Positions 13,989 through 62,520 of a DNA stretch of 64,000 nt are shown in pieces. Location of the stretch: the NCBI GenBank assembly GCA_041650895.1, contig JBAZKF010000001.1, positions 359,156-423,155 on the forward strand, read 5' to 3'. The position numbers and the translations under genes were made by a program. The notes under the pieces were generated by a model. It was given only the letters and a program-made list of their open reading frames with translations. It ran no database searches and was not told the DNA's origin. Source of the DNA: Patescibacteria group bacterium. GTDB lineage: Bacteria; Patescibacteriota; Patescibacteriia; 2-01-FULL-39-33. Position 1 is the stretch's first letter, and every line of letters starts with the position of its first letter.

Positions 13989-14555
13989 ATGTATTTAATA
14001 ATGGGTCTGGGAAATCCCGGCAAAAAATACGAATCCACCTGGCATAACCTGGGCTGGTTAACTGTTGAAAATTTTCGACAGTTGACTGATCTACCACAGT
14101 TTAAAAAGTCAGCCAAATTCCAGGCGGAAATCAGCGCCGGTGAAGTTAATGGCGAAAAAATTATCGTAGCTAAGCCGCTGACCTACATGAATAATTCCGG
14201 AATCAGCATCGGCGCACTGGCCAAATTCTATAAAATAAAAACCGAAAATATCATCATTGTCCACGACGATAAGGATTTGTCTCTGGGTCGGTTGCGTTTG
14301 TCGCAAGACTCTTCGGCCGGCGGACATAACGGGGTCAAATCGATTATTGAACATCTGAATAGCCAAAAATTCTTGCGTGTTCGTTTGGGCGTCAAAACGC
14401 CGCTGTTGGATAAAGTTTCTACCGCCGATTATGTTTTGATGAAATGGAACAAAAACGAAATGATGGCAATCAAAGAGCAAACAAAAAAAGCCGCAGAAGC
14501 GACTTTAGCTATTATTACCGACGGATTGGCCAAGGCCATGAATCAATATAATTAA
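13989..14555 (+). CDS. pth: Peptidyl-tRNA hydrolase
   Basis: Begins MYLIMGLGNPG… (Pth signature). The start used here is the internal Met of track ORF 13926..14555. Confidence 0.85.
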   Translation: MYLIMGLGNPGKKYESTWHNLGWLTVENFRQLTDLPQFKKSAKFQAEISAGEVNGEKIIVAKPLTYMNNSGISIGALAKFYKIKTENIIIVHDDKDLSLGRLRLSQDSSAGGHNGVKSIIEHLNSQKFLRVRLGVKTPLLDKVSTADYVLMKWNKNEMMAIKEQTKKAAEATLAIITDGLAKAMNQYN

Positions 14556-18243: not shown

Positions 18244-18271
18244 AAAATCCCGCCGGCCGGCGGGATTTTTT
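18244..18271. terminator. Bidirectional intrinsic terminator (perfect 13-bp palindrome aaaatcccgccgg/ccggcgggatttt followed by a T-run)
   Basis: Lies between the convergent topA (+) and the GC-rich minus-strand gene at 18390–19188. Confidence 0.7.
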
Positions 18272-18389
18272 GAAATTAAAAAAGACGCAAAGATCGACCG
18301 AAGCCGCTCTTTGCGCCTTAATAATGAGCGTCGTTCCTGCGAAATCAGGGACCAAAATCCAAAAATCAGATCAATGACCGAGCTCGACA

Positions 18390-19188
18390 TTACCCGATGA
18401 GCAGAAGCCCGCTGGAAAAATCGCAAAACGTGTAAGCCAAGTCGTCGATGCGACCGAGGACGAGACAGTCATCGCGGGCCTCGAAGTAGAGCGAATACGC
18501 TGGCGACTGTAAAGTATTGGACGCGCAATCATTGCCAGGGACACGATGGTCGCGAGCCATTACATCAGGATAGCCGATAATGGCGTGGCCGTGAATGATG
18601 ACGTCCGGCAGGACGAACCTCAGGCCTTGCGGTAGCGTCTCCATCTGCCTGCGAGCATCGAGGATGGACCACGACCGCAAAGCATCCGGGAAATACGCCG
18701 CCACGACCGGACCGGCGTCCATGGCTTCGAGGAACAATCTGAAGTTGATCTCGGGCACATAGTTGACCTGATGTTTGACCTGTCTAGCTATATTGAACGG
18801 CCGTCCTGCGAATTGGCCTTCATAGGCAGACCTGACGCCAGCGAGCACTGTGTTTTCCAGATACGTACCCAAGTCAATCTTGATCGCGCCAGCAGCAAAA
18901 ACGAGTGGCAAGCACGGACCGTTGAGAATATTACACACGTCCTCACGGCCGCTGACGGTTTCGATGATCGCCATGAAGCGAAAGTAGAAATCATTGAGTT
19001 GGGGCAGTTCGGAACCCGCTGGCAAATGCCTCTTGAACTGACTCAGGGCCTGGGCGAAACGCGACTTGCCGAAAAACTGCGGTACAACAAATCGGAAATC
19101 CCAATTGGGCGTGTTGGCCTGATTATTGAGGTCATTATAAGGAATACGGACTCCGTTTTCGTCAAACAAACTGGGTTGCTTGGTCATG
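18390..19188 (-). CDS. Hypothetical protein with anomalous GC (about 58–60%), likely horizontally acquired
   Basis: Track ORF 18390..19367. The true start is probably the ATG at 19186-19188 (MTKQPSLFDENG…), preceded by the RBS AGGAGA and lying downstream of a mapped promoter. GC of a 60-nt sample is 60%, against about 45% locally. Confidence 0.55.
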
Positions 19189-19337
19189 ATCGTTCTCCTA
19201 TTTACCTCGCCAATTTCTTGACGTAGGCCCGGTGTTAGTTTGGGGCCATTCCCCCTTCTTTTTTGGATTGTTTTATAGGTACTGCCACCACTAAGCCGAC
19301 TGGGCCAAGCGGATTGCTTCCAATTTATGGAATATAT

Positions 19338-19366
19338 AATTGTAGCATATCTATTACAATTTGTCA
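19338..19366 (-). promoter_or_regulatory. Sigma70-type promoter: TTGACA-17nt-TACAAT (minus strand)
   Basis: The reverse complement of 19338-19366 reads TTGACAaattgtaatagatatgcTACAAT. It is about 140 nt upstream of the predicted start, implying a long 5' UTR. Confidence 0.55.
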
Positions 19367-19479
19367 ATAGTTATAACAAAAAAGTCTAATTTTAGATATT
19401 TATTTATAAAAAATAAACAAAAAATATAACACTTAATAGACAGCCGACTGTTTATTGCTTATAATAAGCTTACACCAAT

Positions 19480-22773: not shown

Positions 22774-22845
<72 letters not shown>

Positions 22846-22934
22846 CTAACCAATCACTGATTAATAATTACTAATTACGAATATAATTATTTTAATTCGT
22901 AATTTGAAATCCGTAATTTGTAATTGACATTTGT

Positions 22935-23007
22935 TGCGGGGGGCGGATTCGAACCGCCGACCTCTTGGTTATGAGCCAAGCGAGCTGCCGGACTGCTCTA
23001 CCCCGCG
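22935..23007 (-). tRNA. tRNA with CAU anticodon and a C1·A72 mismatch (initiator-like tRNA-fMet)
   Basis: Reverse complement reads CGCGGGGTAGAGCAGTCCGGCAGCTCGCTTGGCTCATAACCAAGAGGTCGGCGGTTCGAATCCGCCCCCCGCA. The acceptor stem 5' C pairs against 3' A, as in bacterial initiator tRNA. Confidence 0.7.
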
Positions 23008-23052
23008 ATAATATTTTATTTTCCATCTCTCCCTAAATAGATGAGATTGATG

Positions 23053-23134
23053 TGCCCGAGGAGAGACTCGAACTCTCACATATTGCTATACACGATTTTG
23101 AGTCGTGCGCGTCTACCAGTTCCGCCACTCGGGC
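23053..23134 (-). tRNA. tRNA-Leu (CAA), type II with long variable arm
   Basis: Reverse complement reads GCCCGAGTGGCGGAACTGGTAGACGCGCACGACTCAAAATCGTGTATAGCAATATGTGAGAGTTCGAGTCTCTCCTCGGGCA. Confidence 0.8.
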
Positions 23135-23750: not shown

Positions 23751-24845
23751 CCCCTCCAATAATTCCTTTGTCTGTTGCGCGCATTTATCCCAAGTAAACT
23801 CTCGGGATTTTTGTTTTCCTTTTTCTGCCAACTGCTGTCGAAAATTTTCGACAGTAATTACTTTTTTAATCGCTAAACATATCTCTTCTTCTTTTAAGGG
23901 GTTCACATAGAGCACCGCTTCTCCGCCAATCTCCGGCAAAGAACCGGCGTCGGAAGTTATAACCGGCAAGCCACAAGCCATCGCCTCTGCCACCGGCAAG
24001 CCGAATCCCTCATACAAACTCGGAAAAACAAACACCTCAGCGTGGCTTAATAATTCATGTTTTCTTTCTGGCGTAACATAGCCCAGATACTTTATCGCTT
24101 CTTCCTGCAATTCAGCGTTAGCTTGTCTTAATCCTCTGAATATCTCTTCATTCTTCCAGCCGTTTTTACCGGCCAGAATTAATTTTAAGTCACGCGCCAC
24201 CGGCTCTTCCTGCTTAAGTTTTTTAAACGCCCCGATCAATCGCGTCAGGTTTTTCCGCGGTTCAATAGTACCCAGATACAAAATATATTTCTCTTTGCCT
24301 TTTTGATAAGTCGCTTCTCTGTCGGCCACGCCCTCATAGATCACCTCAATCTTTTCTGGCGCAATGCCAAATAGCTTAATAATATCTCGTTTAGTACTGT
24401 TAGAAACGGCGATAATCTTATCTGCTTGTTTTAAGGATTGCGGTACCAAATAACGCCGATCAAAATTGATCAACCGATCCAGAAATAACTCCGGATAAAG
24501 ATAAACTGCCAAATCATGAATTGTTACCACGGCTTGGCCGCGATAGCCCAAGGGAATAATATTGGCGGGAAACAGGCAGACATCAAGCTTTTGCCGGTTG
24601 ATTAACTTACCAACTATCAACTGGGAATAAAAAAACGGCAAATAACGACGATAACGCGACAACGGAAAACGCTTTATTTCATAATCGCCTGCCACTATTT
24701 CCGGAGGCAGTTTTTCATCTTCATTCAAAAACAAGACATAATGATTATGCTTGTCCTGAATCAATAGATTTTTAACCAACTGCCTGCCGTACTCGCCGAT
24801 TCCCGCCGAGGCAACCAGAGTCCGGCAATCAATCCCGATTCTCAT
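23730..24845 (-). CDS. Glycosyltransferase family 1 (GT4-like)
   Basis: C-terminal motif EGFGLPVAEAMACGLPVITS. Confidence 0.8.
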   Translation of the reverse strand: MRIGIDCRTLVASAGIGEYGRQLVKNLLIQDKHNHYVLFLNEDEKLPPEIVAGDYEIKRFPLSRYRRYLPFFYSQLIVGKLINRQKLDVCLFPANIIPLGYRGQAVVTIHDLAVYLYPELFLDRLINFDRRYLVPQSLKQADKIIAVSNSTKRDIIKLFGIAPEKIEVIYEGVADREATYQKGKEKYILYLGTIEPRKNLTRLIGAFKKLKQEEPVARDLKLILAGKNGWKNEEIFRGLRQANAELQEEAIKYLGYVTPERKHELLSHAEVFVFPSLYEGFGLPVAEAMACGLPVITSDAGSLPEIGGEAVLYVNPLKEEEICLAIKKVITVENFRQQLAEKGKQKSREFTWDKCAQQTKELLEGLQQVKR

Positions 24846-26191: not shown

Positions 26192-26252
26192 AGAATCACG
26201 ACGAGAGAGGTTCTCTAAGGGTTTCGTCCCGACGAGAGCCTTTTTCATTTGT
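26192..26252 (+). ncRNA. Candidate small RNA (about 60 nt) driven by the orphan promoter, with nested stem-loops and a 3' T-run
   Basis: acgatagaatcacGACGAgagaggttctctaagggttTCGTCccgacgagagcctttttc: imperfect hairpins followed by TTTTT. Confidence 0.3.
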
Positions 26253-26781
26253 GTTTATTTTTATACTCCAACTTACCCTTCAAAGCATTTAAAAAAATCA
26301 AAATATTATTTGCCGAGGAACTTAAGCGATCCAAAAGACAAGAATAATTATTTTGATTCGGAATTAACACTCTCTTGAGTTTTGAGTTATTAATTAGATA
26401 TTCTACCAAACAATAAAAATCACCATCACCGGAAACAATAATGGCCTTATCATAATTAGAATATTCAATCATGGCGTGCAATACCAATTCGGCATCTACG
26501 TTACCCTTAACTGTGCCATCAGCTAATTCCAGTGTCGGTTTAAATACGCAAATATAGCCATACTCCTGTAATTTTGTATACATCGCTTGATTACCGGGTT
26601 TAAAGCCGATGAATAGGAAGGCCTTTTCAATGCCATATTTATCTTTAAGATAAATCCTGAATCTTCTATAATCAAGCTGCCAGCCGGAATAAATCTTCCG
26701 GTCTTTTTTATAAATGTCTTTTGACAAGCTTTGATATAAATTATTGCTGTCAATAAAAGCGTAGTTTTTTCCTTGTGGCAT
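26245..26781 (-). CDS. NYN-domain (LabA/DUF88, PIN-like) putative RNase, immediately downstream of the DGR RT on the same strand
   Basis: NYN hallmarks YAFIDSNNLY…, KAIIVSGDGDF; 178 aa. Confidence 0.65.
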   Translation of the reverse strand: MPQGKNYAFIDSNNLYQSLSKDIYKKDRKIYSGWQLDYRRFRIYLKDKYGIEKAFLFIGFKPGNQAMYTKLQEYGYICVFKPTLELADGTVKGNVDAELVLHAMIEYSNYDKAIIVSGDGDFYCLVEYLINNSKLKRVLIPNQNNYSCLLDRLSSSANNILIFLNALKGKLEYKNKHK

Positions 26782-26801: not shown

Positions 26802-27788
26802 TTAGCAAGTATAAGCCAAATTAGCAATTTTTCGTTGTAATTTATAGCTCTGGCCGTGACTCAATAAACCCAAATATGAATTCATGGTTTCCGGGTTATG
26901 ATTTTTCCTCACTCGCCTGAACATCCTTCTTTTACTCGCCGTCCGAAACACCCGATGATCAAAAAAATTCACCCAACCCAGAAAGTCTAAGCCGGGACTT
27001 AAAGTTTTGATAAATAGCTTATCGGGATGAAGCGTCAGTTTCATTTTATCTCTCAAATAAGCATCAACCGATGGAATTATTTTTTCCAAATAATTTTTAT
27101 CATCAGCCATAATCACGAAGTCATCGGCATAGCGGATATAATATTTTACTTTCAGTTTATGCTTAACAAATTGATCAAATCTGTTCATATAAATATTAAC
27201 CAATAACTGCGAAGTTAAATTCCCCAACGGCAAACCTCCGTTAAAACTGTCAATCGCCTCGTCTAATAAACCCAAAATCTTTTTATCCGGAATATACTCG
27301 GCCAGGATATTTTCCAATATCCCATGATCGATATTGGCAAAAAATTTCCTGATGTCACCCTTTAAAATCCAACAAGTGTGGGTGTTATTCTGGCTGGCTT
27401 TGTAAGCAAATTTCTTGAATCTGGCCAAGGCCTTATGCGTGCCCTTGCCCAGCCGGCAGGAATAAGAATCGACGATGAAAGTCCGGTCAAAAAACGGATA
27501 CAAAATCCGATAAATCGCATGATGAACCAACCTATCACTGACCGACGCCTTATGGATTTGCCGCGACTTGGGATCGCAGATCTTAAAGGCCTGGTAGCCG
27601 CCATGGCGATAAGCGCCGGTTGCCAAATCCCGATGCAATGCGATAAGATTATCCATAAGGCGCAATTGGAATTCCTGCACGTCTTTTCTATTCCTTTTGC
27701 CCCTGACAAACTCCTGCCAAGCCAACAATAAATTATCAAGACAGATAATCTCTTCAAAAGTATGGCTCAACTTGATTTTCCCGTTCAT
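26802..27788 (-). CDS. Diversity-generating retroelement (DGR) reverse transcriptase
   Basis: RT domains with a YADD catalytic box (YIRYADDFVIM) and motif 4 LPLGNLTSQLLVNIYM (the DGR-specific xGxxxSQ, not the QGxxSP of group II/retron RTs). 328 aa, no maturase or endonuclease domain. Adjacent TR/VR pairs are present. Confidence 0.9.
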   Translation of the reverse strand: MNGKIKLSHTFEEIICLDNLLLAWQEFVRGKRNRKDVQEFQLRLMDNLIALHRDLATGAYRHGGYQAFKICDPKSRQIHKASVSDRLVHHAIYRILYPFFDRTFIVDSYSCRLGKGTHKALARFKKFAYKASQNNTHTCWILKGDIRKFFANIDHGILENILAEYIPDKKILGLLDEAIDSFNGGLPLGNLTSQLLVNIYMNRFDQFVKHKLKVKYYIRYADDFVIMADDKNYLEKIIPSVDAYLRDKMKLTLHPDKLFIKTLSPGLDFLGWVNFFDHRVFRTASKRRMFRRVRKNHNPETMNSYLGLLSHGQSYKLQRKIANLAYTC

Positions 27789-27815
27789 AATGATTCCTTT
27801 AATTTACCCCCCCCC

Positions 27816-27825
27816 CAACGGAAAA
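27816..27825. repeat. C10 homopolymeric tract between the divergent RT and avd1 genes
   Basis: cccccccccc in an AT-rich intergenic/5' region; a candidate slipped-strand phase-variation site. Confidence 0.6.
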
Positions 27826-27834
27826 TTTATCCCG

Positions 27835-28140
27835 TTGATTCAAAAAACCAAAACGCTATACATAGTATGGCATGGTTACTACCAATCTCTACCCAAAACC
27901 CATAAATACTCATTGGGTCAAAAAATCGACATCTTCTTTATTGAGGCGATTGAAGCTATGGCTACCGCCAGTTTCCTGCCACCACAAGCCAAACCGCCTC
28001 ATATCTGCCTAGCAATTCAAAAAATTGATTTGATAAAAATCATGCTAATGATTCTATGGGAGATAAAGGCGATTGATAATAATAAGTATTTAAATCTATC
28101 GCAACCACTAGACGAAATCGGCCGGATGCTAGGCGGCTAG
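27835..28140 (+). CDS. Avd-like four-helix-bundle (23S rRNA IVS protein family) accessory protein, copy 1 (start uncertain; no in-frame ATG until 27958)
   Basis: The C-terminus …LWEIKAIDNNKYLNLSQPLDEIGRMLGG matches the Avd/four-helix-bundle family C-terminal helix (…EIGkmLggW). It is paralogous to copy 2 with synonymous third-position differences in this frame. It is on the strand opposite to the RT and TR. Confidence 0.45.
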   Translation: MIQKTKTLYIVWHGYYQSLPKTHKYSLGQKIDIFFIEAIEAMATASFLPPQAKPPHICLAIQKIDLIKIMLMILWEIKAIDNNKYLNLSQPLDEIGRMLGG

Positions 28141-28185: not shown

Positions 28186-28199
28186 AAAAATAAAGAGAG

Positions 28200-28320
28200 T
28201 TGCGGAGCGCAGCCGGATTATCGACGTTGAAGTCGTTATCAAGCCAGTTGTAGTTCCAGTTCCATCTGTCGCCATTCCAGTACAGGTAACGCACATACAG
28301 GTTGTCGTCCGAGTTGCGAT
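28200..28320 (-). repeat. DGR template repeat TR1 (cognate to VR1 at 28702-28822)
   Basis: 121-nt match to VR1. All 20 mismatches fall on TR adenines in the minus sense (TR AAC, GAC, TAC, AAT or AGA codons against G, D, C, R or F codons in the VR). Minus-sense TR1 encodes …RNSDDNLYVRYLYWNGDRWNWNYNWLDNDFNVDNPAALRN. Confidence 0.9.
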
Positions 28321-28576
28321 TTTCGCAAAATTCCGCCTAAACCACCATCCGTTGATCCGCCGACTGGCGGAATCTCCAGATTGAATCTTATGCGTGAGCT
28401 AAACTCACATAGAACATTGCGCCAAGTATCTTTACTTTAATTAGGCATTAATATATTACGCTACTACTGACATTGATCAGTAATATTCTGAATAATACTA
28501 ACACCGGCTGAGGTAGCGGATAGCCGTAACCAACCGCGGATTTACCTGTGGCTATTTACATAATAGCAGAATAATT

Positions 28577-28697: not shown

Positions 28698-29255
28698 CTA
28701 CTTGCGGAGCGCAGCCGGATCACCGACGCCGAAGCCGCCATCAAGCCAGCCGTAGCCCCAGTCCCATCCGCCGCCACCCCAGCACAGGTAACGCACAAAC
28801 AGGCGGTCGTCCGAGTCGCGATAAATAGTCCCCCAAAAGAAAATACATTTGCCTTTCCATTCTTCCGGAATCAACTCGAGATGTGCGAGTAAATAGTCAA
28901 GAACATTAGCGTTCAAGACCAGCTTGCCGGCCAACAACTTACGCAAAGCGTGACCTTTGACGATGTTATTCTTCTGGTCATTGGCCAGATAAAGCTCAAT
29001 CAATGCCGGATTCCACTCCAGTTGACCGCCCTTCTGGTGTTCTTCAACTTTCCAGCCGGACGGAACGAAAGGATGAACGTCGCAGTCAATAATGTACTTG
29101 GTCACGATGATTTCCGCCAAGCCATGCAGCACTTTCTTGAATTCCGCCAAACTCTTAAACTGCTGGAGCTTCGTCATCTCCTCCGGCGTATAACCAGCAG
29201 CTTCAAAAGCATCCATTACCTTGTTGGCTTGGCCTACCGAGTAAAGCGTGGACAT
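28698..29255 (-). CDS. DGR target (variable) protein 1; C-terminal VR at 28702-28822
   Basis: Probable start MSTLYSVGQ… with RBS AGGAGA; the track ORF extends to 29285 via GTG. The C-terminus …FVRYLCWGGGGWDWGYGWLDGGFGVGDPAALRK differs from the TR1-encoded peptide only at Asn/adenine-containing codons. It is paralogous to target 2 (shared core …VLDYL…IPEEWK…FFWGTI…). Confidence 0.85.
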   Translation of the reverse strand: MSTLYSVGQANKVMDAFEAAGYTPEEMTKLQQFKSLAEFKKVLHGLAEIIVTKYIIDCDVHPFVPSGWKVEEHQKGGQLEWNPALIELYLANDQKNNIVKGHALRKLLAGKLVLNANVLDYLLAHLELIPEEWKGKCIFFWGTIYRDSDDRLFVRYLCWGGGGWDWGYGWLDGGFGVGDPAALRK

Positions 29256-29338
29256 AGTCCATCTCCTTTTTGCGGACACGTTCACTTTGGAACCCGTCCA
29301 GTTTGAGGTGCGAATTGGCCTTGCATACAGAGCAATTC

Positions 29339-29367: not shown

Positions 29368-29455
29368 ATTTTGTCAATAGATTTATCCACTCTACCAACT
29401 AACTAATTATTTTTATCTAAATTTAAACAAAAAATCACCACTATCTATTGGGATA

Positions 29456-29701
29456 ATGGAAGCAATTGCCACGGCCAGTTTCCTGGACAAACTGAGTAAG
29501 TCGCCGTATGTGGAAACAGCGATCAGAAAAACTGATATTTTAAAAATATTATTATTACTTTTGTGGGAGACAAAATCATTAGATAATAATAAATATTTGG
29601 CCTTATCAATTAAGATTGATGAGGTGGGCAAAATGCTTGGCGGCTGGAAAGGACAATTACTAAGTAAAAACTCCCCCGACAATAAAGCGGGAGAGAAATG
29701 A
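29456..29701 (+). CDS. Avd-like four-helix-bundle accessory protein, copy 2 (81 aa)
   Basis: MEAIATASFL…LWETKSLDNNKYLALSIKIDEVGKMLGGW…; resembles the BPP-1 Avd C-terminus (…EVGRILGSW…). A 40-nt upstream element (aaatttaaacaaaaaatcacc…ttgggataATG) is shared with a truncated third copy at 31508-31556. Confidence 0.5.
   Translation: MEAIATASFLDKLSKSPYVETAIRKTDILKILLLLLWETKSLDNNKYLALSIKIDEVGKMLGGWKGQLLSKNSPDNKAGEK
29663..29695 (-). terminator. Hairpin CTCTCCCGC-N-GGGGGAG plus T-run immediately 3' of TR2 (minus sense), homologous to the element after TR1
   Basis: Minus-sense sequence …gcaactcacttcatttCTCTCCCgctttattgtcGGGGGAGttttta. Confidence 0.5.
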
Positions 29702-29707
29702 AGTGAG

Positions 29708-29829
29708 TTGCGAGAACCGCAGCCGGATTATCGACGTTGAAGTCGTTATCAAGCCAGTTATAGTTCTCATTCCACTGGCTGTCGTTCCAATACAAGTAAC
29801 GGACGTAGAGGTTGCCATCAGAGTTGCGG
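29708..29829 (-). repeat. DGR template repeat TR2 (cognate to VR2 at 30184-30305)
   Basis: 122 nt, with no indels against VR2. The minus-sense sequence encodes RNSDGNLYVRYLYWNDSQWNENYNWLDNDFNVDNPAAVLA against the VR2 peptide RRSDGRLYVRCLFWSGSQWRGCYSWLDSGFVGGSPAAVLA. Most mismatches fall at TR adenines, and four non-adenine mismatches cluster at the 3' end (IMH/IMH*-like). Confidence 0.85.
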
Positions 29830-30065
29830 TTGTATGTGGCGCGCCGCCGATATCACTGCCCGTCGAATACTCTCTGGGCTGGATCTTATTTGTGATCTTA
29901 AATCACTTAGCGCTCCGCACCAAGTATCTTCATTTTTGAAGTTTCTACAGGCGCCACACTGCCTGAAGCCTTGACCGCAGGCATTCTCGGCGACTGGACA
30001 CTGGATTCGGTGGCAAGCAGCCATAACCGCTTGCTGATATTCACCTAATACCTTTTTTATTTTAG

Positions 30066-30169: not shown

Positions 30170-30847
30170 CTAAGCGCTGATACTTGCGAGAACCGCAGCG
30201 GGGCTGCCGCCGACGAAGCCGCTATCAAGCCAGCTATAGCACCCACGCCACTGGCTGCCGCTCCAAAACAAGCAACGGACGTAGAGGCGGCCATCAGAGC
30301 GGCGGAAAATTGTGCCCCAGAAAAAGATAAAGATAATATTTCCTTTTTCATTTTTTTCCTTCCACTCTTCGGGGATGTACTCCTGATTGGCCCTAAGAAA
30401 GTCCAGAACGCTTGCCGACAACACCGGCCGGCCGTCAAGTTCTTTACGTAGTTCATGGCCGACAATAAATCGACCGTTAACCTGGAGCGTTGAGCGATAC
30501 AAAACGACTTTCTGTCCGTCAATGTATAAACCGTCAAATCTCTTTTCAATTGAAATCTTGCCCTGGCGGGCATGTTTCTCAACTGTTGCGTCAGTAAATG
30601 GCGGTCGCGGATCATTGTCCGTATCAATTACCGCCCGAAGGATCGGCGTTGTCTGGCGCAGAAATTCCTCGCCGATTTCCTTGAGTTTCTCAACAAAAAA
30701 ACTCTTGCCCGGACCAGTCGCCCAATCAATCACTTCGGCGCCGACCTTGATTTTCTTCAGAGTTGCGGCTATCAGCGAGAATAGATTGGCGAGCGCCGCC
30801 ACAAACTGCCCGACTTCCTTCCAATTCAAACTCTTTTTCGTCGACAT
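30170..30847 (-). CDS. DGR target (variable) protein 2; C-terminal VR at 30184-30305
   Basis: 225 aa; paralogous to target 1, and its C-terminus matches the TR2 product apart from differences at Asn codons. Confidence 0.85.
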   Translation of the reverse strand: MSTKKSLNWKEVGQFVAALANLFSLIAATLKKIKVGAEVIDWATGPGKSFFVEKLKEIGEEFLRQTTPILRAVIDTDNDPRPPFTDATVEKHARQGKISIEKRFDGLYIDGQKVVLYRSTLQVNGRFIVGHELRKELDGRPVLSASVLDFLRANQEYIPEEWKEKNEKGNIIFIFFWGTIFRRSDGRLYVRCLFWSGSQWRGCYSWLDSGFVGGSPAAVLASISA

Positions 30848-36007: not shown

Positions 36008-36395
36008 GGGGATGTTTTGCTTTGATAGAGATAATGTTTTCCTATTAGCAAACCGAGCATGGCGGCAAACTCGTTAATCCGTCGCCACAGGCAAAAATGC
36101 CAAAAACATCTTAGCTAAAGTCCAATCTGCTTTTAGCAGCCTGGCTTTGGCTCCTGTTCTCGCTTAATATCGAGAACCATCGCCGCGCCCATTCCCGGTA
36201 AGCGCTAAGCGGTGTTATATTATCGGGATCGCCACTGACGTCGCCAGAGCGCCCTTGGTCAAACTTTTCTGGATCGCTTAAGGATTTTTTGCCGCTTTTT
36301 CAGTCCTTAAGTCAGAATATAAAACGGCTAAGTTTGTATCACTTTAGGGGATAATTTATTTCTAGACAGGGGCTCATTACCCCTCATCTCCACAC
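36008..36395 (+). ncRNA. ssrA: Candidate tmRNA (ssrA) downstream of smpB
   Basis: The 5' GGGGATG pairs with the 3' CATCTCC, followed by a discriminator A (acceptor stem). An internal ORF …AKNILAKVQSAFSSLALAPVLA ends with TAA inside the loop of the hairpin gttctcg-cttaatat-cgagaac. A T-arm-like GGGG-ctcatta-CCCC lies just before the 3' end. The length, about 388 nt, is typical. The region is a 575-nt non-coding gap. Confidence 0.45.
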
Positions 36396-37364: not shown

Positions 37365-37437
37365 TTAATAACTAACAGTCCATAAAGTCCAAACTTTCAA
37401 CTTTACAGGCTTTAAAGACTTTCAATTTTATTACCAT

Positions 37438-37916: not shown

Positions 37917-38843
37917 TTAAAAATCAAACTTCCGGAAAAGACAGACGCGCAAATCAAAACTCGGTCTGCTGTGTTTGTGATTTTCGACACGGAGGCCGTA
38001 AGCATGGAAAAAGCCGACGGAAACGAACCAGTTAAAACTATCAGTCACGCTTGAACAATGTTGCCAATCTTCAGCTAAACGCTCTCCATTGATCATGAAA
38101 TTAGTCAGAATCGCTTCGCTAAAGATGGCGGGATTGACGCGCTCGTAAAGCGATTCGGGCTTCTGCGATTCCGCTTCCCGTTGGCCCCAATTGTGCCCAA
38201 CCCATCGACCCTTAAAGTCAATCAGATGGTAGCCACTGGCCGGCTGATGCTTAACCCAATAACCCTCTTTGTCGTGCAACCACCAGGTATAACCACTATG
38301 AAAACATGGCTGTTTTTCTTTCTCCCCGCCCTTACCGCGGATTTCGTACTGCTGGCGCAGGGATTTGCCGCTGACAAACACCAGGCGCCAATCAGTCCGG
38401 CCGGAGTAATTTTCAGCGGCCGCCTGTTTCAGTGTTGCTTTGGTGTAACGGATAGGTCCGTTAACAATCGGCTGACGCCAAACTCTAGCTGTGGCACGAG
38501 CCATGATCACCTTATTGGCACCAAGGATTCTAATCGCCTGTCGTACTGACAGATTAATCTGCACCGTTGCTTCATTTTGTGCTTGTGTTTGTATTGGATT
38601 AATCTGCACCGTTACTTCATTCCGCAATATGGCAGCGATCATAGCCGCCTGACCATCTCTTGGCACATCAGCCAAAACACGATTCAATACGGCTTCAAGC
38701 TGGCCGAGGTCAATATCGCCATATTTAATCGGTTTCCCGGCCTTGGCAGCTAAAAGCCGCGCCGCAGGCACGCCCAAGTGCTCAAGCAGAGCATAAACTT
38801 CATGTAATGTAAAAGTTCTGCAATCTTTCTTTTCATCTTCCAT
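37917..38843 (-). CDS. Hypothetical protein, moderately GC-rich, with an internal 22-bp direct repeat and a W/G/Y-rich segment
   Basis: 308 aa; RBS AAGGAGA. The consensus promoter TTGACA-17-TATAAT lies at 38960-38990 (reverse complement). attaatctgcaccgtt[g/a]cttcatt is repeated at 38559 and 38606. Confidence 0.5.
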   Translation of the reverse strand: MEDEKKDCRTFTLHEVYALLEHLGVPAARLLAAKAGKPIKYGDIDLGQLEAVLNRVLADVPRDGQAAMIAAILRNEVTVQINPIQTQAQNEATVQINLSVRQAIRILGANKVIMARATARVWRQPIVNGPIRYTKATLKQAAAENYSGRTDWRLVFVSGKSLRQQYEIRGKGGEKEKQPCFHSGYTWWLHDKEGYWVKHQPASGYHLIDFKGRWVGHNWGQREAESQKPESLYERVNPAIFSEAILTNFMINGERLAEDWQHCSSVTDSFNWFVSVGFFHAYGLRVENHKHSRPSFDLRVCLFRKFDF

Positions 38844-39194
38844 CTCATTCTCCTTTCAGGCGATTGGCCCGATTGATGGAATTTTTCCCCTACCCGAGGA
38901 TCAGGGTAACTCGACAATCACAATGCCAAGCCAACGAGTCATTATATCAAAAACAATATAATTTGTCAATAGTGTAAAGTAATAACAAAAAATTAGTAAT
39001 AAAATATCTAATTTTAGACAAAATTAACCATCTTGACTTTACCCAAACAATACGATATAATGATAACACAACTTAACCCTTTCCCATTCCCTTTTCAGGG
39101 GCTCTTAAGCGCCAAACGACTTAAGAAAAGGCAAACAACCACGATTCCTACGAGAATTCCAGGCTTGCCTTGGGATTTTTTTAATGTCTCGCTT

Positions 39195-39356
39195 GTCATT
39201 CCGACTAAGCGAGCAAGGCGAACGCGTGGAGGAATCGCTTGTTCTTCTTTGTCATTCCGACTAAGCGAGCAAGGCGAACGCGTGGAGGAATCGCTTGTAT
39301 TAAATAATTAAGGAATTCCTCGACTCCACTCCCGCTTCGCTTACGTTGCGCTCGGA
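39195..39356. repeat. Tandem direct repeat (2 × about 55 bp: ttgtcattccgactaagcgagcaaggcgaacgcgtggaggaatcgcttgt) plus a diverged inverted copy, upstream of rpsF
   Basis: Exact duplication at 39195-39249 and 39250-39304. Each unit is itself hairpin-forming (ATTCC…GGAAT). An inverted partial copy lies at 39320-39356. Confidence 0.7.
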
Positions 39357-40468: not shown

Positions 40469-40561
40469 ACCATCATTAAGTCAAAAGTCCATAAAGCCCG
40501 TGGAGTTAATTAATTTTGATTTTAACTTTGCGGACTTTGACTTTAAAAGACCACCAATATT

Positions 40562-43277: not shown

Positions 43278-43295
43278 AAAATAATTGATTTATAA

Positions 43296-43378
43296 AGTCA
43301 AAAGTCCATAAAGTCCATAAAGTCAAGACTTCCAATATTTAATGACTTTAGACCTTATGGACTTTCAACTTTTAACTT
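43296..43378. repeat. REP-like intergenic palindrome (GTCCATAAAGTC … GACTTTATGGAC family), one of at least six copies
   Basis: aAGTCCATAAAGTCCATAAAGTCaagacttcc…GACTTTAGACCTTATGGACTTTc. Related hairpin units occur at 36405-36475, 37375-37435, 39878-39960, 40470-40555 and 40805-40910. Confidence 0.6.
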
Positions 43379-59014: not shown

Positions 59015-59050
59015 TTTTAATCGAACATTTAACTACTAGAATAAAAGCTG

Positions 59051-59085
59051 TCGAAAATTTTCGACAGCTTTTTATTTTTCTTATC
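59051..59085. terminator. Bidirectional terminator: perfect palindrome agctgtcgaaaattttcgacagct followed by a T-run
   Basis: The same 21-bp palindrome also occurs inside the glycosyltransferase gene at about 23833-23853. Confidence 0.6.
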
Positions 59086-61403: not shown

Positions 61404-62141
61404 TCAAATTACTGCGAGAGAAGCCCGGAAGCCGAACCGTAGAGGTCGTGGGCAAGGACCCAGAGCGTGTCGAACCAGACCCCGGCCGCCGTCGAACCCG
61501 AAGCAGAAGCACGGAGACTCCGAGAAGTCGCCATCGGCAACGAGAGCATATTCGTCGCCGGGGCAATCAATGTGGAGTTGTTCGCATTGAACGAGCCGTT
61601 CGGGATGAGCGATGAGCATACAGCCCACGATGAATGACCCGAGGCCGAACTCGCCGGGGGCATACACGACTCGCACGCGCCGAACCGAACGTCCGCGGTG
61701 GCTGAAACCGAATTGCGCCGGGATGAGTAGGAAATCGCCCTTCTGCTTTTCGCCGAGCATCTGGAGAGCGACCGCCGTCCGTTCCGTAAGCCGCAAATAC
61801 TTCTCGTCGAGCTTGCCCTTGCGGAAGTTGTAAAGCGTCCGCGTTTTGCCGATGATGTCTATCACTCGTTCAACGGCGTCGTTGTAGTCCTTGCCGACCT
61901 TCTCAAACTTCGGTACGGCGAACCATCTCTCTGCTCCTGATGGCAGGATCGGCAATTCCTTGGAACTGTTCAATGCCGAGCTAGCATCAAGGTTGGGGAG
62001 ATGCCTGGATAACGCCACGAGCTGTTCGGCTATCGGCTTCACGGCATATCCTTGCGGATAACCGTAATTGGATTGCACTTCCTCGTTGGCGTAAAACGGG
62101 CAGGCAGCGGCCATGGCCGGTGCTGCAACGTGAGTCGTCAT
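61404..62141 (-). CDS. Hypothetical protein with anomalous GC (about 58%), likely horizontally acquired
   Basis: 245 aa. A consensus promoter TTGACA-17-TATACT lies at 62308-62336 (reverse complement); a GTTATCCACAG motif at 62412-62422 lies upstream. Confidence 0.5.
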   Translation of the reverse strand: MTTHVAAPAMAAACPFYANEEVQSNYGYPQGYAVKPIAEQLVALSRHLPNLDASSALNSSKELPILPSGAERWFAVPKFEKVGKDYNDAVERVIDIIGKTRTLYNFRKGKLDEKYLRLTERTAVALQMLGEKQKGDFLLIPAQFGFSHRGRSVRRVRVVYAPGEFGLGSFIVGCMLIAHPERLVQCEQLHIDCPGDEYALVADGDFSESPCFCFGFDGGRGLVRHALGPCPRPLRFGFRASLAVI

Positions 62142-62520
62142 GATGACAACATCCTTCTTCTTTTGGATCTGCCAGAGTCGCTCTGGCTGACGTCTTGCCT
62201 CTATCTATATGAGGCGAGCATATTAGACACGAATAATTCATGTCCGATACGCTTGCCTCATAATCCTATAAGCCTAAATTTAATGCTTTTAAGGAACAAT
62301 AACTATCATATTAGTATAGCAAATATGGTAAATTTTGTCAAGCATTTTAGGTATGGTCTACGGACATATCCGACACTTTCGTGGTAATATTTAGCCAAAA
62401 CAAGCTAAATGGTTATCCACAGAAATTTCCAAGCAACAGCAATCCATAAGAATCTATTAAATAAAAAGGCCCGACTAAGAATTAATCAGGCCTCATTAAA
62501 AATTCAATCGTGATACTAAA

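Follow-up and report, generated by a model that had tools for sequence, protein, structure and literature searches.

Two groups of described systems lie closest to the gene analysed here. One consists of variable proteins of diversity-generating retroelements (DGRs) with a C-type-lectin fold, namely Mtd of Bordetella phage BPP-1, TvpA of Treponema denticola and TaqVP of Thermus aquaticus. The other consists of domain-less DGR targets known from CPR bacteria (RT clade 2, Roux et al. 2021, PMC8144416; 'unknown VR' classes UVR1-6, Wu et al. 2018, PMC5758913). CPR targets are typically without recognisable domains (PMC8144416), and several CPR classes of variable region (VR) are unassigned (PMC5758913).

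Here we describe a minus-strand gene in a 64-kb stretch of a 957,791-bp Patescibacteria contig (hereafter the window). As in the Mtd, TvpA and TaqVP systems, homologues of this focal gene feature a C-terminal VR that ends at the stop codon with an IMH-like GC-rich boundary, a template repeat (TR) with adenine-specific differences, and avd and RT genes alongside; unlike them, the focal protein has no detectable sequence similarity to these three proteins, and the focal copy lacks its own TR, avd and RT. As in the domain-less CPR targets, the family is found in Patescibacteria only and has no recognisable domain or transmembrane segment, and linked members show the order target, TR, avd and RT, whereas the focal gene stands without a retroelement. 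Overall, we consider the focal gene probably an orphaned DGR variable-protein gene, with a native-type promoter, a frozen former VR and a probable allele swap in its history.

Organization of the transcription unit

An earlier note on this DNA had reported an ORF at 18390-19370. Its minus-strand end at 18390 is confirmed but its extent is not: the mechanical ORF start is a TTG at 19367, i.e. the -35 box itself, and the CDS spans 18390-19187, with 19188-19370 taken up by leader and promoter. The unit features the following elements:

19339..19367 (-), sigma-70-type promoter TTGACA-17 nt-TACAAT with a TG extension, 11/12 consensus positions
19188..19333 (-), 5' leader of ~146 nt
19333-19318 (-), leader hairpin P1, 5'-terminal
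19312-19288 (-), leader hairpin P2'
19255-19242 (-), leader GGGG..CCCC hairpin
19229-19204 (-), leader hairpin specific to the window
19199-19195 (-), SD sequence AGGAG, supporting the ATG at 19187
18390..19187 (-), CDS of 265 aa plus stop, MTKQPSLFDENG...SSGLLLIG, with the same product in the NCBI annotation
18386..18514 (-), apparent fossil variable region (VR equivalent), residues 225-265
18392-18416 (-), IMH-like GC-rich end, 25-mer TCCAGCGGGCTTCTGCTCATCGGGT
18390-18392 (-), stop codon of the focal CDS
18278..18319 (-), intrinsic terminator specific to the cassette, predicted to fold as an interrupted 16-bp hairpin followed by U6
18244..18269 (both strands), perfect 26-nt palindrome between A and T runs, a bidirectional terminator shared with topA

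The promoter and the RBS-supported start behind a long leader, both anticipated in the earlier note, are thus borne out. The same promoter and three other minus-strand promoters of the window share the extended consensus CTATTGACAAAT...TGCTAyAAT (family D3), which argues for a native-type promoter. On the downstream side, the palindrome that had been proposed to bound the gene is indeed perfect, but it is not the sole boundary, as the gene's own terminator precedes it and the order after the focal gene is two terminators, then topA. The palindrome stretch is 88% identical to its counterpart in the syntenic homologous locus L014/L038 (homologous loci are given by their L numbers throughout), compared with 65% for the CDS, and on this sequence comparison the palindrome is part of the conserved flank rather than of the cassette. 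The terminator hairpin AAGGyGCAAAGA...TCTTTGCrCC followed by a T run is also found after the homologues L013, L037, L016 and L008, in other genomic contexts. Promoter, leader, CDS, 3' UTR and terminator form a self-contained unit, and the same regulatory parts accompany homologues in at least four genomic contexts. The focal gene would be transcribed alone from its strong native-type promoter, and transcription would stop at the cassette's own terminator.

A protein family with a confidently modeled fold

Searches of Pfam, NCBIfam, PHROGs, PADLOC and PDB sequences gave no match for the focal protein, in line with the earlier description of a product without recognisable domain, and neither a signal peptide nor a lipobox was seen in the protein, nor a phage context at its locus. 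The identical gene is present in the metagenome SRR8542065. Nine relatives were retrieved by a word-indexed search and 534 cluster representatives by a full profile search; the lineages named for the sources are all CPR (Doudnabacteria, Falkowbacteria, Parcubacteria), apart from one MAG labelled Gammaproteobacteria, and none of 131 family members examined has a convincing Pfam domain. Most members are ~300 aa long and feature an N-terminal extension of ~45 aa that is lacking in the focal protein. Paralogue pairs within one genome are frequent, each copy with its own promoter and leader, as seen on either side of ruvA in L006 (2948-3898 and 4749-5825) and in tandem in L001 (10001-11803) and L012 (2980-4798).

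The AlphaFold model of the focal protein reached a pLDDT of 96 and a pTM of 0.93 with an alignment of 131 sequences, compared with a pLDDT of 46.6 when only 9 sequences were used. The predicted fold is partly C-type-lectin-like, in the C-terminal portion where the variable residues would be located, and a Foldseek search of the model against PDB and BFVD returned nothing significant. The residues that hardly vary across the 131 members are Gly, Pro, aromatic and aliphatic ones, with no conserved His, Cys or Asp of catalytic type, a pattern that suggests a binding scaffold rather than an enzyme and that sets the family apart from FGE-sulfatase-like domains (PvdO and the C-terminal domains of EgtB, OvoA and SenA).

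A sister family is represented in the window by a gene of 58% GC at 61404-62141 (-), with its own TTGACA promoter, a hairpin-rich leader of ~190 nt reaching to ~62350, and a terminator. This family, also from CPR bacteria (>250 hits), is a distant homologue of the focal one (hhalign probability 93.5%, E = 2.4e-7, 195 columns). Elsewhere its members are followed by bAvd and RVT_1 genes and are DGR targets, with a GC content of up to 62% in genomes of 40% GC. The copy at 61404-62141 lacks ~40 N-terminal residues of its homologues, and no TR lies nearby.

Homologues of the focal gene are DGR targets

Loci of the focal family were searched with the RT and Avd of the sister family, and several members were found to have Avd and RT genes directly behind them. 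Among these are the closest relatives of the focal gene, L015 and L016, with 68-72% identity over the full length and 76-77% outside the VR. In the DGR-linked loci the last 124-131 nt of the gene are repeated ~500 nt downstream, and mismatches between the two repeats fall nearly all at template adenines: 20/21 in both L015 and L016, 17/18 in L021, 25/26 in L022 and 20/20 in L034 for the focal family, and 16/16 in L040 and 17/17 in L042 for the sister family. The cassette order is target, TR, avd on the opposite strand, and RT in L016, L021, L022 and L040. As 3' repeats with mismatches at template adenines are the hallmark of DGRs, the family is a class of DGR variable proteins, and this assignment of a domain-less family agrees with the statements on CPR targets in PMC8144416 and PMC5758913. 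A "dark" family of ~534 clusters, with a confident structure model, and its sister family of >250 members can now be placed among DGR variable proteins.

In the linked members, the template repeat that lies ~500 nt downstream is copied by RT and Avd with misreading of its adenines, and the resulting cDNA takes the place of the last ~125-130 nt of the gene, i.e. its VR. Such replacement rewrites the binding surface of the predicted C-type-lectin-like domain.

Leader RNAs of the focal gene and its family

Stabilizing hairpins at the 5' terminus are a feature of some bacterial mRNAs, such as those with the ompA and aprE leaders. Similarly, the focal gene and almost all loci of its family have a hairpin that begins at most a few nucleotides from the predicted start of transcription; unlike a stabilizer of the ompA/aprE type, however, the focal leader carries further conserved helices that a simple stabilizer does not need. 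Its predicted fold has an energy of -42.3 kcal/mol (z = -2.05). P1 (ATTCCA...TGGAAT, at the extreme 5' end), P2' and a GTACnTA box recur in the six closest homologous leaders, a conservation that argues for a functional 5' UTR, and across seven sequences of the focal leader subtype P2' forms a 9-pair helix with compensatory changes in four pairs, a modest degree of support. Judging by position and conservation, the 5'-terminal hairpin would most likely guard the mRNA from 5'-end-dependent decay, while the remaining helices would modulate ribosome access. No Rfam family matched inside 19188-19338 at E ≤ 10 and none reached the gathering score, and none matched in 10 homologous loci. A 4-codon uORF present in the focal leader and in the leader at 62142-62350 was dropped as a candidate element, as it is not conserved in L014 or L037.

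Most of the longer family members carry a leader different from the focal one, referred to here as canonical. Its layout consists of a 5' hairpin, the element CCC-N2-4-[5-bp helix, GGGNA loop]-AAAA, a linker, and a 6-bp helix abutting AAGGAGG. Upstream of all those longer members, a covariance model of this leader (R1, two helices) reaches 47-76 bits, and the canonical leader is found at L005, L006, L007, L017, L019, L021-L026, L028, L030, L031, L033 and L036, as well as at 38841-38906 of the window. Helices P2 and P3 covary, with 96% of positions paired and double changes in 8/11 pairs; 0/500 shuffles scored as well, and slid controls were far lower. The CCC and GGG segments are invariant and constitute a putative pseudoknot pair. 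An anti-SD switch through CCUC was also considered for this leader and is contradicted by L005 and L036. The canonical leader is absent from Rfam, and no described counterpart was found in the literature; viral contigs scanned for exact matches to one variant of its core gave nothing useful. R1 matched neither the focal leader nor those upstream of sister-family genes. The covarying motif of the canonical leader is a candidate new cis-acting RNA.

The match to R1 within the window (38906-38841, minus strand, 58 bits, E 9e-19) lies upstream of ORF 37917-38843 (-) and comes with a consensus promoter. This ORF encodes a protein of 308 aa (WC473_01950) of a third dark family, whose first ~80 residues show homology to the N-terminal extension found in long focal-family members. 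Full homology between the two families was rejected, the profile comparison not being significant and only a domain of ~45 aa at the N-terminus being shared. The occurrence of both the R1 leader and the ~45-aa N-terminal domain with an otherwise unrelated protein indicates that the two travel as one module. In its broadest form, which we regard as rather doubtful, this observation would extend to a dedicated and so far undescribed class of structured leaders of CPR DGR targets, inherited as a regulatory module with the ~45-aa N-terminal domain, shuffled between unrelated C-terminal domains and making production of variable proteins depend on a signal or a trans-acting factor, from which the focal variant would have diverged.

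Could the long focal leader be a ligand- or protein-responsive switch, akin to a riboswitch, that makes production of the protein conditional? We consider this unlikely. Conservation of the leader among the closest homologues despite an overall identity of 60% would be in keeping with such a function, as would the different, strongly conserved and covarying leader of most longer members, the pseudoknot that its invariant CCC...GGG could form, and the partial pairing of the SD in the minimum-free-energy fold of the focal leader. On the other hand, no Rfam family matches, the canonical model does not recognize the focal leader, neither SD sequestration nor the short uORF is conserved, the CCC/GGG pair never varies and hence provides no covariation for its pairing, the anti-SD reading fails in L005 and L036, and the z-score of the fold is no lower than -2.05. 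Of the "possibly regulated leader" proposed earlier, a conserved and functional 5' UTR is therefore retained, whereas a riboswitch is not, given the Rfam result and the modest structural support.

The focal gene as a probable orphaned target

Despite its close relationship to DGR-linked genes, the focal copy is followed directly by no TR, avd or RT. Comparison of its 3' end with the TR of L016, used as a heterologous reference, revealed identity at 82/99 non-A sites (83%) but at only 12/30 A sites (40%; Fisher p = 1.2e-5), and AAC codons of the L016 template appear in the focal gene as TAC, CGC, TGT, GTC, GGT etc. As TR adenines fall in codons of the least constrained residues, part of this contrast could arise without retrohoming. 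The IMH-like 25-mer, which occurs once in the window, matches the VR/TR of L016 at 23/25 positions and encodes the conserved C-terminus of the family, SGGLLLxG. By these sequence features, the last 129 nt of the focal gene resemble a fossil VR. A search of the 64-kb window with 7-nt words and, for the IMH, with up to 3 mismatches recovered no repeat of 18386-18514.

A complete DGR is present in the window, at the following positions:

26802-27788 (-), RT (RVT_1 1e-22)
27832-28140 (+), bAvd
28198-28321 (TR1) and 28700-28823 (VRa), the latter at the 3' end of ORF 28698-29285 (-); 22/23 mismatches at template A
29390-29647 (+), Avd-like remnant
29708-29831 (TR2) and 30184-30307 (VRb), the latter at the 3' end of ORF 30170-30847 (-); 22/26 mismatches at template A

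With a GC content of 51%, both targets are GC-rich, and neither has a Pfam domain. This nearest RT/Avd pair (26802-28140) lies 7.6 kb from the focal gene and serves other targets, and neither TR1 nor TR2 has similarity to the focal 3' end. Directly downstream of the RT is a gene for an NYN-domain protein, a predicted RNase (26245-26781, minus strand), with a very low GC content of 33%.

That the focal gene is still an active target, diversified in trans from a template outside the 64-kb window by the RT/Avd at 26.8-28.1 kb or by another DGR, appears quite unlikely to us. The window DGR does look functional, with two TR/VR pairs, the focal 3' end retains its IMH-like sequence and a low A content, and remote DGR targets are known (PMC5758913); however, the word and IMH searches above recovered no TR-like match in the window, both TRs there are unrelated in sequence, TRs are normally located beside the RT (PMC5758913), and the non-A sites differ by 17% from the nearest known TR, as expected after decay. 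An orphaned gene with a frozen VR accounts best for these data in our judgement, and the locus would then exemplify a variable protein that persists after loss of its diversifier, with a fossil VR and an independent promoter, leader and terminator, as well as allele exchange at a conserved locus.

Adenine depletion underlies the GC excess

The GC content had first been put at about 60%, 15 points above background. Measured over the CDS it is 53.8%, compared with 44.4% for the window, i.e. a difference of 9.4 points or 2.8 SD of same-length windows, and only the richest 100-nt stretch reaches 66%. The atypical composition and codon usage are nonetheless real: GC3 is 64.3% vs 49.8 ± 5.0% in other genes (+2.9 SD), and the codon-usage score is lower than the mean by 1.5 SD. 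Coding-strand A amounts to 20.2%, vs 28.8 ± 4.0% in the other genes of the window, while T is unchanged (26.1% vs 26.3%); at third positions A falls to 10.2%, the window minimum, where other genes average ~20% (range 12-34%). The GC excess is thus due to adenine depletion on the coding strand. High expression as the source of the codon bias was rejected, rpoB and rpoC having an A3 of 0.16-0.17 and codon scores more typical than that of the focal gene.

The A content is lowest in the last sixth of the focal gene (15%; active targets have 8-12% there), but depletion spans the whole gene, with 20-26% A outside the VR equivalent, and mutagenesis limited to the VR does not explain it. Genes of the family exceed the GC content of their neighbours in 17/21 loci, by 6.2 points on average (Wilcoxon p = 7e-5), in hosts ranging from 25 to 54% GC. 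Within DGR cassettes, targets have 51-61% GC while the adjacent avd and RT genes have 31-46%, and such a contrast between neighbours of one cassette cannot be a donor signature and must be a property of the target-gene class. GC-richness is a trait of this class of genes and no evidence of import. The focal gene is also not unique in this respect, since the sister-family gene at 61404-62141 is the most GC-rich stretch of the window, and the two most GC-rich genes are hence both of the DGR target kind.

Depletion of adenine along the whole gene, next to AT-rich avd and RT genes, may reflect retroelement-linked selection or mutagenesis that shapes the entire target. The available passages of PMC8144416 and PMC5758913 contain no description of a GC or adenine contrast between target and avd/RT, nor of conserved leaders. 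Low adenine on the coding strand at an ordinary T content could provide an inexpensive marker of DGR target genes, among them orphans that escape DGR finders based on TR/VR pairs. These findings also remove a false lead, in that a GC-rich and codon-atypical CPR gene need not be an import.

History of the locus

A homologue is found between the same relA and topA flanks in L014/L038, from a relative. In comparison with L014, nucleotide identity varies along the locus as follows:

Flanks (relA 5' end, palindrome spacer, topA 3' end), 88-93%
CDS, 65%
Leader, 60%
Promoter, 62%
3' UTR, 71%

At third positions, the gene is 48.7% identical and the flanks are 74% identical (p = 5.6e-5). At the protein level, the positional counterpart is 72% identical outside the VR, no closer than non-syntenic copies and compared with the 76-77% of L015 and L016. 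Other contexts of the subfamily include glmS/RNase J (with two tandem copies) and mnmA/alaS, among others, always with a similar set of promoter, leader and terminator. A cassette only 65% identical between flanks of 88-93% identity makes some exchange between lineages likely, and we propose that the whole cassette was probably exchanged through recombination between CPR lineages and not passed down vertically. Neither mobility genes nor tRNA or flanking direct repeats were found within the unit or at its edges, and a scan of viral contigs for the focal protein returned no viral relatives.

Recent acquisition from a GC-richer donor, with a composition not yet ameliorated, is very unlikely, for although the offsets in GC, GC3 and codon score, the homologues in at least four different contexts and a cassette far more diverged than its flanks would all be compatible with it, a relative carries a copy in the same relA/topA slot, the promoter fits the genome's own consensus, the excess is A-specific with T unchanged, recurs in hosts of 25 to 54% GC and is not shared by the adjacent AT-rich avd and RT of DGR cassettes, and the searches for mobility genes, tRNA, flanking repeats and viral relatives were negative. 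Of the horizontal acquisition put forward in the earlier note, the atypical composition, the self-contained unit and a likely exchange between lineages hold, whereas GC excess as a sign of foreign origin does not, and the syntenic copy in L014/L038, a result that the earlier note had named as refuting, speaks against foreign origin itself. With exchange between CPR lineages as the preferred reading, we infer that the focal gene did not recently enter from outside the CPR group.

Other features of the window

Two exact direct repeats of 50 nt (TTGTCATTCCGACTAAGCGAGCAAGGCGAACGCGTGGAGGAATCGCTTGT), spaced 56 nt apart, occupy 39193-39298 in an intergenic region upstream of the promoter at 38939-38977. 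A short motif, AAAGTCCATAAAGTC, recurs in several intergenic regions (37374-37400, 40475-40509 and 43292-43335; repeat families D12 and D19). The palindrome GCTGTCGAAAATTTTCGACAGC is repeated at 23834-23866, 59047-59079 and 14061-14093 and probably represents a shared type of terminator. Finally, the genes for a tmRNA (109 bits) and for three tRNAs, located in 36008-36395 and 22774-23134, appear ordinary.
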